Virus record (IMG/VR): IMGVR_UViG_3300028030_000008
Location: 21,700-85,699 of that record
DNA length: 64,000 nt
Source: a virus
Direction: 5' to 3' (one strand)
This document shows positions 3,439 to 43,602 of this stretch, one piece after another. The position numbers and the translations under genes are program-made. Numbering within the stretch: the first letter of the stretch is position 1; the number at the start of each line of letters is the position of its first letter. The notes beneath the pieces were generated by a model. It was given only the letters and a program-made list of their open reading frames with translations, was not told the origin of the DNA and ran no database searches.

Positions 3439-4078
3439 AAAAGTTCTAAACGAAGTAAGCGAAAACGAGGAAATCACATACTGGACTCGTCGCTCTGAAT
3501 ATGAGATGGTCGAGGAGTTCGCTGAGGGATTTCTGTACATTTGGGTTTGGTCATTAGCAATGTTGGATATTTCCAACGCACTCGACATGCCATCAATTTT
3601 GTATGGCCTTCTGTTTAATCTCTTGTTTATCTGGACAATGGTTCGTGAATTTATCGAGTGGAAAGCAGAAGTACATGTTGTTACAGAGTACATTAGTGAC
3701 AAAGGTGGGTCTTACTACAAATTTTGGGGAGCTTTTAGGCAGAGAGACAAGGAAATCCCAATCTCAGGTTCATCGCCGGATATTTCGACAGATACGCTAC
3801 TCAGTGCAAGAATTTGGAGATTTATAACAGGCGAACATCTAAAAAAAATCACTTTGTCGTCTCAAGGGCGCACGTATATCAATGGTAGTAAAATGTCGCC
3901 ACAACTAAAAGCTGCAATCAAATCCGCCAGAGGAAGCCCAGCGGAAAAGAATGAAGCCGATTCTGATACAGTGCAGATTGCAAGAGAAGTCAGGAGGATG
4001 ATGAAGGACGGCACGCTTAGTAAGCACGAGGCAAGGCACTACGCAAGAAACTTAATCGAGAGAGCGGTAAATGGATAA
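3410..4078 (+). CDS. Membrane protein (2 TM)
   Basis: Two hydrophobic segments then soluble domain. Confidence 0.6.
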   Translation: MVQKMKTPPEKVLNEVSENEEITYWTRRSEYEMVEEFAEGFLYIWVWSLAMLDISNALDMPSILYGLLFNLLFIWTMVREFIEWKAEVHVVTEYISDKGGSYYKFWGAFRQRDKEIPISGSSPDISTDTLLSARIWRFITGEHLKKITLSSQGRTYINGSKMSPQLKAAIKSARGSPAEKNEADSDTVQIAREVRRMMKDGTLSKHEARHYARNLIERAVNG

Positions 4079-24585: not shown

Positions 24586-24657
24586 TGCGGAATAGCTTAA
24601 CGGTAGAGCGCCAGAATCATAATCTGGATGTTGCAGGTTCAAATCCCGCTTCCGCAA
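24586..24657 (+). tRNA. tRNA with CAT anticodon (Met or Ile2)
   Basis: Cloverleaf: TGCGGAA/TTCCGCA, CCAGA-atCATaa-TCTGG, GCAGG-TTCAAAT-CCCGC. Confidence 0.9.
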
Positions 24658-24737
24658 CATGACCTTAGAGATAACCGAGTTCAATAAGGTCATTCTAATC
24701 TAAGTTGAACGGACGGTGACAGCCGGAGAGACGACGT

Positions 24738-24858
24738 GCAGGCGTAGCAGAATGGGTATATGCCATGTCGAAAGACGAGGGGATGTCACGGACGGGTGTT
24801 CGGATGGGTTCGAGTCCCAGCTTCTCCTAGTGTAAGGTTAGATTCCTTGCCGCCTGTA
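24738..24858 (+). ncRNA. tRNA-like RNA with nested second T-arm in place of anticodon arm
   Basis: GCAGGCG/CGCCTGT acceptor, D arm, GTAAGG-TTAGATT-CCTTGC; inner TGGG-TTCGAGT-CCCA. Confidence 0.65.
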
Positions 24859-24874
24859 TTTAAATAAACCGAAG

Positions 24875-25026
24875 ATGGCAGCGGCGTGTGGGAAACGCTA
24901 TGACTGGGAGTAGCAAATGGTTGGTGTCACTACCCTGAAACGGACCAACGTGAAACGCGAGACTGGTAAAACAGTGCCGTACAATGGATTGACCAACCAA
25001 AGCCGGTTCAAATCCGGCCTGCCATT
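24875..25026 (+). ncRNA. tRNA-like RNA with about 100-nt insert replacing anticodon arm
   Basis: ATGGCAG/CTGCCAT, GCGT/ACGC D stem, GCCGG-TTCAAAT-CCGGC; insert has TGGTTGGT/ACCAACCA stem. Confidence 0.65.
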
Positions 25027-25474: not shown

Positions 25475-25680
25475 TAGGATGACAATATATTACTAAGAAT
25501 TTAGACGAAAAACCGGATGGTTAGCGGTCGGTGAATCCAAGTCCTAAAATCGCTGTGTGGTTGAGAGTACCACTACGTAGGTAGAAAACAATACCGACAA
25601 AAACTGCCTACACACTGAGTATCTATAAATTCCTAAAATGTAAATTTGACAATCAAGTAATAAGGTGATAAAATATGGGT

Positions 25681-25908
25681 ATGAAGCCAAGTTCGCATAA
25701 TCCGACTTTTTCAAACGTCACGCCACAACAGGTACTTAAATTGCAAGAATTTGCACTAGAACTAACCGGAAAAAGAAGTGCGTCTGCGTTGCTCCGCTTA
25801 ATCGCAGATGACGGTTTTGTAACAAGTGCGCCCAATATCGGTATATCAATGGCGACACCGTTTGACGGTAAACAAAAAAGAGTGCTGGTCGTCGAGCGGC
25901 CAGAATAA
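25681..25908 (+). CDS. Small RHH-like protein, paralogue 1
   Basis: Own promoter TTGACA(25646)-17-TAAAAT, terminator about 25915-25938; SALLRLIA helix. Confidence 0.55.
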   Translation: MKPSSHNPTFSNVTPQQVLKLQEFALELTGKRSASALLRLIADDGFVTSAPNIGISMATPFDGKQKRVLVVERPE

Positions 25909-25993
25909 GGCACGGCAGTCCTAATAGGGCTGTTTTTTATTTAACCACCCTAGATTTGACAAATAGGAACATAAGGTATAGAATATGTCTCAA

Positions 25994-26212
25994 ATGAAAA
26001 CAACCATTTCCGGGCTAACAGAAACAGAAAAAGCAAAACTTGAACTCCTGTCATTACAGCTACTTGGCAGGGCAAACATGTCAGCACTGATACGCCACAT
26101 AGCCAGTAATGGCGTCGTAAAAGATAAAGAAAGCATGAGCATGTCAGAATCGCTAAACGGGACTTTTGACGTTGGACTTAAAAAAGTGCTAATCGTAAAA
26201 ACACAAGCCTAG
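25994..26212 (+). CDS. Small RHH-like protein, paralogue 2
   Basis: Own promoter TTGACA(25956)-17-TAGAAT; SALIRHIA helix; hairpin+T run after stop. Confidence 0.55.
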   Translation: MKTTISGLTETEKAKLELLSLQLLGRANMSALIRHIASNGVVKDKESMSMSESLNGTFDVGLKKVLIVKTQA

Positions 26213-26279
26213 CGCGGTGCGTCCGCCGACATACTGAGGCTTGTTTTTTATTCACAAAGCCCCTGTTATACCAACAATA

Positions 26280-26604
26280 AGCCCGGCCCAACCGTCTCAG
26301 GGGAGATGAGTGGTCACAAATACCTGCAAACCAAGATGCTAACCGTGAGGGAACGCCACCGGGAGAGGCCGGAAAATTCTTGGAAAGACGCGGAAATGCG
26401 AGAGTGTGGACAATTAGCTTGAGAGTGCCACGACATGCAGCGGATAAAGCGATGAAACTTGGAGATAGGCCCCAGGTGGAGCAGAGGGAGTTCTGGTAAC
26501 ATCAGGAATGATGTGCAATGTAAATCCGAGCCGGGGTTGTTAAACCAGAAGCCTGAAAAATAGTGGCGGATAGCCTGTGCAAATCGCACAGGGGAGCATG
26601 GGCT
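26280..26604 (+). ncRNA. Unidentified structured RNA, copy A
   Basis: AGCCC/GGGCT closure, many internal stems, blocks shared with 41368 copy. Confidence 0.6.
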
Positions 26605-26730
26605 CAGTGTGTCTATCGAGCAATGTGACATCAAAACATAAAAGAGTTCTTTCAGTGATGTGAAGAATGAACATCACAGGAAGGGTTGGCAAATGCAGTT
26701 TTTGCCAACCATACTGTAAGGAGAAATAAA

Positions 26731-27012
26731 ATGCTAACAATATCAGAAGTTTTAGATTACGAAAATGCAGCGTACCTCGCTTGTATTAGTAAACGATGGG
26801 GGGTTGTCTATTCGGAAATTCAAGAGAGCGACTACTGGTTGGGTGGTGATGTTGGAGGATTTACAAACGATAGTAACATTTTCTTTAGAACACCCCATCA
26901 AGCAGAAACGTACTATCAACGAAATTACCAACAAGTATTCGTGTTTGATAACGAGGGCGAAGCACAAGAGAAATGCAACGAACTTGAGGCTGCAATGCAA
27001 GAAAATGAATAA
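26731..27012 (+). CDS. Hypothetical protein
   Basis: AAGGAG RBS. Confidence 0.6.
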   Translation: MLTISEVLDYENAAYLACISKRWGVVYSEIQESDYWLGGDVGGFTNDSNIFFRTPHQAETYYQRNYQQVFVFDNEGEAQEKCNELEAAMQENE

Positions 27013-27541
27013 GAAACGAAAGTGGTACGTTGTATGGAAAGGGAGAAAACCGGGCATATACATAACATGGTTAGCTTGCAAAAAACAAATTCACAAATAC
27101 CCGGGAGCAAGGTACAAAAGTTTTCCAACGAAAGCCGCAGCAGAAAAAGCCTTTGGAAACAACTTTGATAAGTTTCCAAAACACCGCAAAACGACAGCAT
27201 TTTCTCCTGAAACTGTGACTAAGGAAAGTAAGTCTGAAAGGATCAAACAACCTTCTCAAGCACCGAAACCCACTTTCAGGAAAAAGAAATTCAAAACAGT
27301 TCAAGTTTCATGTCCGTTATGCTTAGGGACAGGAACAGAACGAGACGGGGAGTCGTTCTGGGATTGTCGTAAGTGTAACGGAAAAGGAACTATCGAAATT
27401 TGGGTTGGAGTGACAGACAAGATTGTTTCTCAAGCTGTAATGAAAAAACGCTTTGACTACAAAGAACGTTTGGGTAAACAATATTTAAGAAGACAAAAAG
27501 ATTTTACCAATCGGCTAAATTTAGCGAAAGGAGCAAGATGA
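27005..27541 (+). CDS. RNase H1 N-terminal (Cauli_VI) hybrid-binding domain + DnaJ-type zinc finger
   Basis: WYVVWKGRKPGIY.TW..C..QI..YPGARYKSF; CPLCLGTG..CRKCNGKG. Confidence 0.75.
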   Translation: MNKKRKWYVVWKGRKPGIYITWLACKKQIHKYPGARYKSFPTKAAAEKAFGNNFDKFPKHRKTTAFSPETVTKESKSERIKQPSQAPKPTFRKKKFKTVQVSCPLCLGTGTERDGESFWDCRKCNGKGTIEIWVGVTDKIVSQAVMKKRFDYKERLGKQYLRRQKDFTNRLNLAKGAR

Positions 27542-41074: not shown

Positions 41075-41131
41075 CCTTTAGCAATAATTTCCTGTATTAG
41101 TTTTGACAATAAATGAAAGGAGGTGTACAAT

Positions 41132-41368
41132 ATGGGTGTGAGACAGACTAGATTACCTAAAGGTGTGAAAGCAAGACCAATTACGGCGAATTTACCGGAG
41201 GATTTGTATAATCGCCTGCTTGAGCTTGCGCGTAAAAATAGACGCTCCATGAGCGCCGAGGCTACTTTTGCAATCGAGGAGTACCTTAGCGAATACGAAT
41301 GGGCGACTAACAAGCCTTGGATAACTAAAAATTCTTTTGACAAAACCCCCGCCATAGAAGATAAATAG
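41132..41368 (+). CDS. Arc/RHH DNA-binding protein
   Basis: ITANLPEDLYNRLLELARKNRRSMSAEA; promoter TTGACA(41103)-17-TACAAT. Confidence 0.8.
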   Translation: MGVRQTRLPKGVKARPITANLPEDLYNRLLELARKNRRSMSAEATFAIEEYLSEYEWATNKPWITKNSFDKTPAIEDK

Positions 41369-41575
41369 CCCTCCGCCCCAACCATCGCGGGGGCGATGAG
41401 TGGGCGCGGATAAACGCGATTGCTTGCAACGCGCATCCTCTCGATGATTTTGACCGTTTCTGCTGCTGTGATTACGCCCTGGTTTTGGCCTCCGGGGAAA
41501 CGAGGCAGGGGAGAGTCGTAGCCGTAGGAATACGGCGCGTGTACACAGAAACCGAGCATGTTAAGCGACTGGCTG
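41368..41575 (+). ncRNA. Unidentified structured RNA, copy B (interrupted by IS; 3' end at about 42936-42946)
   Basis: Homologous blocks to 26280 copy; several hairpins. Confidence 0.6.
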
Positions 41576-42935
41576 GTCAACTACATATCGACTAAAAGTC
41601 GGTAACTTGCCCGTCCGGTTGAAAACCGGCTAAAGAATTAGCCGAACCAGCGTGCTTAAGGGGCGGTTGACACGCCCCATCACCGACCAGGTCTTGCCTG
41701 GCGATGATACCGCGCAATCTAATGTTGCGGGCGGCATTTAGGTCAGAATTAGCAGAGTAACCGCAAGCTCCACACTTAAAATTATGACGCTTACGATTAG
41801 ACTTGGCAACAAAACCGCATACAGAACAACCCTGAGACGTGTGCTTTGGATCAATCTTGATGACCTCAAAGCCTTCGCTTCTGGCTTTGTAGCTAATAAA
41901 TTCATCAAGTTGATAGAAAGCCCATTGATTAAGGTCAGTACGGAACGCCTTACGCAGTTTGCGTCCCTTCCTGATACCCTTCAAATCTTCAAGGGCAATC
42001 ATTGGGTCGCCAGTCTCTTTAGCAAACTCAATAATGCGCTTACTGATAACGTGATTTGTATTCTTGGTAAAACGCGCTTGCTTTCCGCTTTGCCGTTTCA
42101 GAACGCGCCTGATGGAGCGCGTGTTCTTCTGTGCCTTCTTCCTTTGGAGGCTAGAGCGCGTTTTTTGATAGCGACCTCTAACGTGTTTCGTTTGACCGCC
42201 GCCAAAAAACAAACTACGTTTACCATCGGTCACAACAGCAAGATTGTTAATCCCCCTGTCAATACCGATAACCGCATCATTTGGCTTGCTAATTTCCGCT
42301 ACTTCCTTTTTGAACGTTACGGAAAGAAATACGCCGCGCCTGGAAACGTGAAGCCTTGCATCTCCAAGCTGCCAATCAGCAAGATATTCTTGCAACTTGG
42401 GTTCACCCTGAAATGTGACCCCTTTAATTCTGCCTGCGGTAGTCCAGATACTAAGGCCGGTTTTCTTGAAACCGAAGTCCCGTTCACGCGCCCCGCCTTG
42501 AAGCACAACCGCCGCATTTTTGAAATGTATTGGCTTCTTTGGCATCTTTTTGGCGGTACGCATTGCCTTGTACTTGGATGTAACGAACCTGAACAGGCTG
42601 CCAGTTACTTGCGCGGACAATCCGTAATCGGCCTTAACCTGATGGTAAATCAGCTTATGCAGCTTTACAGGATTAAGGATATTACCATTATCAAAAGCTA
42701 CCTTACTGGCAAAGTTACAAGCATCATTCCATGCCCTGATAGTGTCAATGGCGGTTTGCCTGTCAAGATTTATTTTAATCTTTGTAGCGCGTATAATATC
42801 CATATAGTAATTATAGCACAAGCTATAGGGATATGCAAATATATTATTGCGAGGCTGGGAAGTTACCCAAACTACGGGCGACCCGCTATCCCCCGTATCG
42901 CTTAAAGGCGGTAGTTCCTCGCGGGGGGAAAGACT
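41576..42935 (-). mobile_element. Non-autonomous IS200/IS605-family (tnpB-only) element
   Basis: Right end hairpin CGACT-ttt-AGTCG then GTAGTTGAC; left-end-like hairpin about 42885-42930; no tnpA; left boundary approximate. Confidence 0.75.
41592..42803 (-). CDS. tnpB: TnpB RNA-guided nuclease
   Basis: IGIDRG, IALEDL, TSQGCSVCG..CGACG, NSDLNAARNI; RuvC D-E-D intact. Confidence 0.95.
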   Translation of the reverse strand: MDIIRATKIKINLDRQTAIDTIRAWNDACNFASKVAFDNGNILNPVKLHKLIYHQVKADYGLSAQVTGSLFRFVTSKYKAMRTAKKMPKKPIHFKNAAVVLQGGARERDFGFKKTGLSIWTTAGRIKGVTFQGEPKLQEYLADWQLGDARLHVSRRGVFLSVTFKKEVAEISKPNDAVIGIDRGINNLAVVTDGKRSLFFGGGQTKHVRGRYQKTRSSLQRKKAQKNTRSIRRVLKRQSGKQARFTKNTNHVISKRIIEFAKETGDPMIALEDLKGIRKGRKLRKAFRTDLNQWAFYQLDEFISYKARSEGFEVIKIDPKHTSQGCSVCGFVAKSNRKRHNFKCGACGYSANSDLNAARNIRLRGIIARQDLVGDGACQPPLKHAGSANSLAGFQPDGQVTDF

Positions 42936-42972
42936 ATAGAGAGGGTGCGCCCGTTGGTTGAAAGGAGTGCAA

Positions 42973-43602
42973 ATGAATACATACCATAAAATTCAAACCG
43001 TTTTTAAGCGAGACCCAAATAACAAATACAAGACACTGTTACTCGGCGAATACGCATTAAGGGAATTTGAGTATCTTGCCAACAACGAGTGGGTTTTCAC
43101 TGAAAAGATTGATGGTACAAACATCAGAGTGATGTTCGATGGAGAAAGAATTACATTTGGCGGCAAAACTGACCGCGCTCAAATTCCAGCGCCTCTTGTT
43201 GCCCGGTTGAATGAGGTGTTTTTACCGGAGACAAGCTTATTCAAGGAAAAGTTCCCTGATGGAGTATGTCTGTACGGGGAGGGGTATGGCGCAAAAATCC
43301 AGAAAGGTGGAGGAAACTATCGCCAAGACCAAGACTTTGTTTTGTTTGATGTAAAAATTGGAGATTGGTGGTTACAGCGCGAGGATGTTCACCAAATAGC
43401 AATTGAGCTCGGGATTGACGTTGTGCCAATTATTGGCAGTGGAACGTTGCCGGAAATGGTTGATATTGTTTCTAGGGGATTTAATTCGACTTGGGGTGAT
43501 TTTGTTGCGGAAGGCATTGTTGCTCGCCCGAAAGTAGAATTAAAAACTCGTGGCGGTAATCGAATTATCACAAAAATAAAGCACAAAGATTTCACGAAAT
43601 GA
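42973..43602 (+). CDS. RNA ligase (Rnl2-like nucleotidyltransferase domain)
   Basis: TEKIDGTN, LYGEGYG, FVLFDV, AEGIVARP, TKIK. Confidence 0.85.
   Translation: MNTYHKIQTVFKRDPNNKYKTLLLGEYALREFEYLANNEWVFTEKIDGTNIRVMFDGERITFGGKTDRAQIPAPLVARLNEVFLPETSLFKEKFPDGVCLYGEGYGAKIQKGGGNYRQDQDFVLFDVKIGDWWLQREDVHQIAIELGIDVVPIIGSGTLPEMVDIVSRGFNSTWGDFVAEGIVARPKVELKTRGGNRIITKIKHKDFTK

Follow-up and report, generated by a model that had tools for sequence, protein, structure and literature searches.

Promoter-proximal RNA hairpins that act in cis are familiar from phages, as in the boxB hairpins of lambda nutL and nutR and the putL and putR sites of HK022. The guides of TnpB proteins are taken from the right flank of the mobile element that encodes them. 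In T4-like phages, promoter(early) stem-loop (PeSL) repeats consist of a terminator stem-loop followed by an early promoter, occur many times per genome and mediate insertions and deletions (PMC2839356, PMC4122927). Here we describe a repeat of about 80 base pairs (bp) that carries a hairpin, H1, and occurs twice (copies A and B) in an uncultured phage, probably from a hydrothermal vent, whose lineage has almost no sequenced relatives. The DNA analysed, referred to as the window, is a stretch of 64,000 nucleotides (nt) covering bases 21700-85699 of the 85.7-kb IMG/VR virus record IMGVR_UViG_3300028030_000008. A preliminary description of this stretch had interpreted the two copies, each lying behind a small gene of ribbon-helix-helix (RHH) appearance, as a conserved structured non-coding RNA (ncRNA) of phages.

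This orphan phage has a small but real hairpin cassette in two copies, and an ordinary TnpB element later struck one of them. The 27-nt match between H1 of copy A and H1 of copy B, which prompted the original proposal, is confirmed at 23 of 27 positions. A degenerate pattern of these 27 nt has two matches in the window, with none expected from 100 shuffles, and two in the whole 85.7-kb genome. Homology detected by BLAST and local alignment reaches about 80 nt (the conserved block, Table 1), the local score of the A/B comparison being 29 against 8.5 +/- 1.5 for shuffles (z~13), and the 40 nt upstream of H1 are similar on their own (p~0.016). The fold of H1 has a stem of 6 bp closed by an (A/G)GGG loop, then a 2x2 internal loop (AC/AG) and an outer stem, CCCA/UGG. 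As had been noted, the four differences between the copies amount to a U-A to G-C exchange at pair 11-18, a G.U to A-U exchange at pair 8-21 and one loop base, that is, one double compensatory change, one G.U/A-U change and no disruptive one. The G-run of the loop, the internal loop and the flanks are invariant. Further, the G.U pair of copy A requires the + strand to fold as RNA; it would be a C.A mismatch if the other strand folded.

Our favoured explanation, which we hold tentatively, is that the repeated unit would be a cis-acting hairpin cassette of ~80 bp heading long untranslated leaders and moved by cassette recombination, rather than an RNA gene of 300 nt. The cassette would comprise a TTGACA-type box, a C-rich box and a 27- to 45-nt stem-loop, H1, working as + strand RNA. 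The next + strand gene after each copy would have a long untranslated leader, rich in GC and headed by that copy, leader A leading to a 93-amino-acid (aa) open reading frame (ORF) and then to a protein with an RNase H1 N-terminal domain, and leader B to an RNA ligase; 3' of H1 the two leaders would be different sequences. Lying at or near the 5' end of the leader, H1 would presumably act in cis, either by stabilising the transcript or by being recognised by a protein or the polymerase. Consistent with a transcript that starts in the block, a weak promoter, TTCACA-16-AACAAT, is called in copy A. Both spacers that follow the block are GC islands (0.51-0.57 against 0.35-0.43 nearby) with a purine excess on the + strand. 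Like the nut and put sites, the cassette is present in two copies per genome, with a conserved hairpin placed early in a (here predicted) transcription unit and with loop and flanks kept while the stem covaries. Unlike at those sites, no boxA-like motif (by reading), N-like protein or downstream terminator was identified, and H1 differs from the boxB and put hairpins in having a G-rich tetraloop and a 2x2 internal loop.

H1 might also toggle with an alternative helix. Pairing is possible between the upstream CCCC(T/C)G box and the 3' part of the 5' arm of H1 together with its loop, and one position of this helix covaries (A-U in A, G-C in B). In the 85-nt block A the C-box helix is the minimum-energy fold, while in block B H1 is far more stable. 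A bistable switch is thus a lead, drawn from predicted folds of two sequences. Two other candidates were considered for the same segment. A small ORF starting at an ATG inside H1 was rejected, as it runs for 38 codons in A and for 5 in B. Mimicry of a CRISPR repeat, suggested by the likeness of GCGGATAAAC to the 3' part of type I-E repeats, was dropped; no CRISPR direct-repeat model of Rfam matched either region at E<=10, and the geometry of H1 also differs.

Several observations weigh against the cis-acting leader cassette. With two copies and no homologues, the RNA structure of H1 rests on two informative substitutions, and a DNA palindrome bound by a protein dimer would likewise appear to carry a compensatory change if both of its arms changed symmetrically. 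Block B has a perfect -35 box and no acceptable -10 hexamer. This box lies inside the last 11 codons of the RHH gene of copy B (RHH-B), and the 40 nt upstream of H1 in B encode those codons (SFDKTPAIEDK and stop), the same frame in A reading FTKPLLYQQ and stop. As the segment doubles as the tail of a gene, its similarity may reflect a gene-tail relic, a promoter or both, and it is possible that a decaying gene tail, not a promoter, is what has been kept. Thermodynamic support is modest, the folding z-score of copy B being about -1.9 on both strands. Finally, regulation of any gene by these leaders is a proposal only.

In an alternative explanation the block would be an element of the DNA itself, such as a cassette boundary, a site of recombination or an inverted repeat bound by a protein (an operator of one of the small RHH-type proteins would be an example), conserved as double-stranded DNA between spacers that are unrelated filler. 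We regard this as unlikely, if by no means negligible. RHH proteins bind double-stranded DNA, and their operators normally sit at the promoter they regulate. Conservation between A and B is limited to the block, copy B folds equally well on either strand, and the surrounding small genes look like cassettes with one and the same promoter-ATG architecture, all of which would suit a DNA element. However, the G.T that copy A would contain spoils a DNA palindrome and suits a + strand RNA. Further, an operator read base by base would not be expected to vary in its stem and keep its loop and flanks, yet this inverse pattern is what is seen, and the hairpin lies 3' of the genes rather than at a promoter. 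PeSL cassettes of T4-like phages provide a precedent for such an element (PMC4122927, PMC2839356), although their order is stem-loop then promoter in many copies, which is here reversed and in two copies.

The cassette character of the neighbourhood shows in the promoters. The preliminary description had reported near-identical promoters, and this holds: three small ORFs, A1 and A2 upstream of copy A and RHH-B upstream of copy B, are each preceded by the arrangement TTGACA-N17-TAnAAT-ATG, which has these three occurrences in the window, against 0.01 expected, and no others in the genome. Moreover, one contig of another metagenome run, X3, joins 41075 to 41340, skipping 264 nt; this single contig is without the RHH-B cassette, yet keeps at least 65 nt of the block. 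The TTGACA box is both where the deletion has its border (41340), as would also fit a DNA-level element, and where A/B homology begins (41332-41337). Under the favoured explanation, the cassette and the strong-promoter genes A1, A2 and RHH-B would have been shuffled by recombination at TTGACA boxes, which would place a small gene before each copy without any functional partnership. The comparison with PeSL elements is instructive here. In both, short composite repeats of promoter and stem-loop lie beside small genes of unassigned function in a variable phage region. In one X3 contig, for which only the two sides of the joint are available, an apparent indel has a border on the repeat. In contrast to PeSL, the block has its box before the hairpin, lacks a T-run or U-tract, is present in two copies and has no sequence similarity to those elements. 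The PeSL order is found at the junction of the A1 terminator and the A2 promoter (25914-25984).

The -10 hexamer directly adjoins the annotated ATG in each of the three small-gene cassettes (25669-25683, 25979-25996 and 41126-41140), so that the transcript would start about 7 nt later. At about this distance past the hexamer, A1 has another in-frame ATG (25681) and B has a GTG (41138); the next ATG of A2 lies 10 nt past it. The A1, A2 and RHH-B mRNAs may therefore be leaderless, in which case the AGGT/GGAGGT ribosome-binding site in the promoter spacer may serve read-through transcripts only.

The description of the small genes as RHH-like stood for gene B and did not for A1 and A2. The product of gene B matches Pfam RHH_5 at 28.8 bits (cut-off 26) and TraY at 24.9 bits (cut-off 21.3), as well as Arc-like PHROGs. 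A1 and A2 are 34% identical to each other, and their sole homologue is P0123 (68% identity to A1), encoded on a 91-kb contig. Neither has a Pfam match even at E<=10 or a PHROG match, and a comparison of A1 and A2 with PDB gave one uninformative match, to a hypothetical protein (E 0.93). Alignment of A1/A2 with gene B by hhalign gave E 0.014 with a probability of 3%, and the AlphaFold 2 monomer model of A2 (pLDDT 54) was too poor for use. Atlas returned leads only, at 0.83-0.86, to clusters of the RHH clan, so that an RHH nature of A1 and A2, including the beta-alpha-alpha pattern seen by eye, is a lead. Consequently, the proposed linkage of the repeat to RHH genes is weak: one of the three genes is a proven RHH gene, and the X3 contig keeps the block without RHH-B. 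The larger claim of a new structured RNA family tied to RHH proteins is not supported.

Table 1. Features of the two copies and their surroundings, in window positions
Feature	Position	Strand	Details
Cassette A1	25646-25908	+	TTGACA-17-TAAAAT touching ATG; 77-aa ORF 25675-25908
Intrinsic terminator after A1	25914-25934	+	Terminator call
Cassette A2	25956-26212	+	TTGACA-17-TAGAAT touching ATG; 75-aa ORF 25985-26212
Terminator-like hairpin after A2	26203-26250	+	CAAGCCT/AGGCTTG stem, 27-nt loop, then T-run; read from sequence
Conserved block, copy A	26246-26322	+	TTCACA box, CCCC(T)G box, AGCCC, H1 at 26287-26313
Spacer A	26323-26730	+	Without plausible ORF; GC- and purine-rich; hairpins 26573-26591, 26652-26683, 26684-26711
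93-aa ORF	26731-27012	+	No known family; directly 3' of spacer A
Cassette B	41103-41368	+	TTGACA-17-TACAAT touching ATG; 78-aa Arc/ParG/TraY-type RHH protein 41132-41368
Conserved block, copy B	41332-41412	+	TTGACA box 41337-41342, CCCCCG box, AGCCC, H1 at 41377-41403
Spacer B, left part	41413-41575	+	Has GCGCATCCTCTC (41431-41442), 5' strand of 12-bp helix
Predicted omega-RNA guide	41556-41575	-	First ~20 nt of flank past right end
tnpB-only IS200/IS605-family element	41576-~42933	-	~1.36 kb; ends by homologue comparison
Right end and putative omega-RNA scaffold	41576-~41700	-	Common fold of related elements
tnpB coding sequence	41592-42803	-	403 aa
Left end of element	border ~42933 (+/-2 nt)	-	Own TTTGCA-18-TATAAT promoter; TATAG-like target-adjacent motif 42938-42934
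Spacer B, right part	42934-42972	+	GAGAGGGTGCGC (42938-42949), GTTGG, AAGGAG ribosome-binding site of RNA ligase gene
RNA ligase gene	42973-43602	+	Directly 3' of spacer B; Pfam RNA_ligase 1.2e-18, PHROG 548

Past the first ~80 nt there is no support for treating 26287-26604 and 41377-41580 as two copies of a single structured ncRNA. The two motifs taken to link them, GCGGATAAA at 26440 and 41406 and GAGCATG at 26594 and 41554, are where they had been placed; as evidence they carry no weight. By arithmetic, stretches of this size are expected to share ~0.2 9-mers and ~4 7-mers by chance, and the remainder of A scored 15 against the remainder of B with the transposon removed, compared with 11.9 +/- 2.0 for shuffles, 29 of 300 of which matched it (p~0.1). 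Since this similarity is not significant, both co-occurrences are at chance level. The terminal GCCC/GGGC stem is missing from the minimum-energy folds, and the additional multibranch domain ascribed to A (26323-26442) folds no better than shuffles (z -0.5). Folding z-scores, for which three coding segments served as controls (-1.1 to +1.4), were -1.56 on the + and +0.19 on the - strand for the A core (26276-26545), and for B were calculated with the insertion sequence (IS) removed. The sole strong signal, at 26546-26730 (-4.5 on the +, -3.5 on the - strand), is nearly strand-symmetric and is due to three plain hairpins. These are near-perfect, lie just 5' of the ribosome-binding site of the ORF at 26731 and lack a U-tract. 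The last of them, 26684-26711 (GGTTGGCAAA/TTTGCCAACC), contains a recurrence of CCAACC from the conserved block, and in B a GTTGG stands 18-22 nt upstream of the RNA-ligase ATG.

Nevertheless, it is conceivable, if rather improbable, that A (~26280-26604) and B without the IS (~41368-41575 plus 42934-42960) are paralogues of a new, autonomous structured phage ncRNA with an extra domain in A, which might work together with a protein. When the B core (41453-41556) and its predicted fold were made into a covariance model, A was matched at 26439-26530 with 11.1 bits (E~1.1); third in the window, this is the best match other than B that aligns most of the model. The alignment pairs a GGAA-loop hairpin in A (26499-26514) with one in B (41517-41532) through four double-compensatory pairs, with flanks kept as GCAG(A)GGGAG..GTA / GC..TGTA, a correspondence without statistical support. 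The attraction of this hairpin, statistically unsupported as it is, is the reason for retaining the paralogue reading at this low level. It gains from the evidence for + strand RNA (the substitutions, the composition and the z-score of the A core), from hairpins with GNRA-type tetraloops that read well on the + strand only, and from long-range closing helices in both copies. In agreement with the preliminary description, which recognised no RNA family, Rfam 15 has no match to either region; at E<=10 the two regions gave chance microRNA, SECIS and long non-coding RNA matches only, and in the whole window a tRNA-Met (24586-24657) alone passes the gathering threshold. However, the likeness past the block is not significant by either comparison (p~0.1, E~1.1), the predicted architectures of A and B differ and the A-specific domain is without a fold signal. 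Further, no terminator was called that would mark a 3' end, the viral and prokaryotic collections scanned yielded no homologue, and the X3 contig indicates that the link to RHH genes is not obligatory.

The terminator scan made no call from the T-run at 26250 up to the ATG at 26731, nor between the RHH-B stop and the IS. It missed the hairpin after A2 because the loop of that hairpin exceeds 8 nt. A minus-strand ORF at 26314-26634 has no family match. Compared with the large phage ncRNAs GOLLD, ROOL and HEARO, the locus is likewise a GC-rich, gene-free phage island of several hundred nt near a tRNA region, but it is much smaller, matches no Rfam model at E<=10 and has not yielded an assembled family.

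At 41575/41576 a tnpB element breaks copy B in two, a feature absent from the earlier reading. The TnpB protein contains OrfB_IS605 and Cas12f1-like TNB domains and has 955 homologues. In an alignment of 30 of them D188 and E278 are invariant and D360 nearly so, and these residues are taken as the putative RuvC acidic triad. At 37 homologous loci DNA homology ends within a few bases of the tnpB stop. Eleven elements end in ...GGGCAAGC-hairpin-GTARTTGAC followed by unrelated flank, and the minus strand of the window has the same end at 41576. The last 125 nt of the related elements share a common fold of 35 pairs, 25 with compensatory changes, which corresponds to the predicted omega-RNA scaffold at 41576-41700. 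The left ends have GCGCAGGGGAC-hairpin-GGGGAATGCGC in common, with a (C/T)ATAG-like target in front of it, which sets the left border in the window at ~42933. With both ends fixed, the element spans 41576-~42933 and has tnpB as its sole gene. Target DNA outside it includes the 27-nt hairpin together with the next 164 nt.

A further explanation considered was that copy B is itself the omega-RNA scaffold and right end of the adjacent tnpB element, with copy A as an orphan right end. Copy B does lie directly 3' of a minus-strand tnpB gene, as a structured non-coding stretch does in the ISDra2-type systems, and gene-less omega-RNA relics are common in phages. Unlike in those systems, the scaffold lies inside the IS, and the block and spacer are target DNA of which ~20 nt would serve as guide. 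The 11 homologous elements all end ~0-20 nt from the tnpB stop, the window's element ending at 41576, and the conserved fold lies wholly within 41576-41700, so that the block (41332-41412) is at least 164 nt outside; these two results refute the omega-RNA interpretation of copy B. Further, the regions downstream of the homologues share nothing with the block, the minus strand of region A has z-scores of +0.2 to +0.3, and the genome has no second TnpB fragment near copy A or elsewhere, a six-frame PF07282 search of it having found one tnpB only. Taken together, this explanation as a whole is highly implausible.

In terms of the favoured leader cassette, a tnpB-only IS605-type element would have entered leader B later, 3' of a TATAG-like target-adjacent motif (TAM). 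The insertion would have parted the leader from the RNA-ligase gene and turned leader sequence into the omega-RNA guide. The flanks of the IS are complementary to each other: GCGCATCCTCTC and GAGAGGGTGCGC form a 12-bp helix, with further pairs. The energy of the flank duplex, -37.3 kcal/mol, is reached by 1-2% of shuffles (p~0.01-0.02) and, among natural 37-mers with a similar GC content, by 7 of 334; by base-pair count alone the 12-bp helix is not rare, 6-7% of shuffles reaching it with G.U allowed. This complementarity suggests that the insertion split a folded unit ending ~25 nt before the start of the RNA-ligase gene (42973).

Two side observations concern TnpB elements more generally. At several left ends among loci L004-L034 the TAM-like (C/T)ATAG lies within GCCATAG or GCCATAA, the reverse complement of an ATGGC... 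start, and elements of this TnpB clade may insert just upstream of divergent genes. Outside the window, the minus strand of the genome at 3700-3940 contains a promoter, a stretch resembling a tnpB 3' remnant, a hairpin ending in TCAC and, after ~24 nt, a strong terminator. It has no BLAST similarity to the window IS and ends in TCAC instead of TTGAC; should it be a relic, a different TnpB clade would be its origin.

All genes at 23-49 kb except tnpB are on the + strand. In copy A, the 93-aa ORF is followed by the protein with an RNase H1 N-terminal (duplex-binding) domain. The 93-aa ORF and the 258-aa ORF of the latter (26765-27541) overlap in different frames; since the Pfam domain starts at residue 86 (~27020), the true start is probably near 27010. 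These neighbours invite a bolder combination, which we consider improbable: the spacers would be paralogues of a new phage-specific family of structured leaders or ncRNAs, headed by a bistable H1 and controlling RNA-repair or RNA-binding genes (the RNA ligase and the RNase-H1-N-domain protein), with TnpB having homed into one of them as its guide.

Relatives of the locus were sought widely. DNA similar to either region was not found among INPHARED phages, and the 360-aa gene, the RNase-H1-N protein, a Rad50-like protein and P0123 did not lead to a relative in IMG/VR that could be used. Searched as a covariance model, the ~80-nt block was found only as the two copies in this genome and was absent from record L041, the sole weak IMG/VR match. 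Among viral contigs of IMG/VR a strict hairpin pattern had 0 matches, and a relaxed one had 9 chance matches, none with the full stem. In 185,579 prokaryotic genomes the hairpin pattern had 27 matches, none of them a homologue: in the recurrent groups the flanks look like conserved coding sequence from GC-rich bacteria, and in the others they are unlike those of the block. All sampled words of the genome are present in the hydrothermal-vent metagenome run X1, which may be its source. Contigs of runs X2-X4 leave most of 25.2-27.7 kb and 41.43-43.4 kb uncovered and were counted neither way, and no RNA run was among the sequencing runs found to contain the region.

Should H1 prove to be a cis-acting RNA signal, it would add a new example of promoter-proximal RNA control from a poorly sampled phage lineage and would show such signals travelling with small gene cassettes. 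The tnpB insertion is a clean natural case of an IS605-type guide targeting a phage spacer, for which a regulatory role is proposed, and it bears on the competition between phage genomes with and without the IS. The locus also advises caution on two counts: a structured stretch beside tnpB is not automatically an omega-RNA, and short motifs common to two GC-rich spacers do not define an RNA family. Apart from the two spacers, a second GC island (0.50-0.55) lies at 24700-25000 of the window, just 3' of the tRNA-Met gene (24586-24658). ARAGORN and Rfam call nothing in it, and it is the bin with the highest cover by contigs of three other runs.

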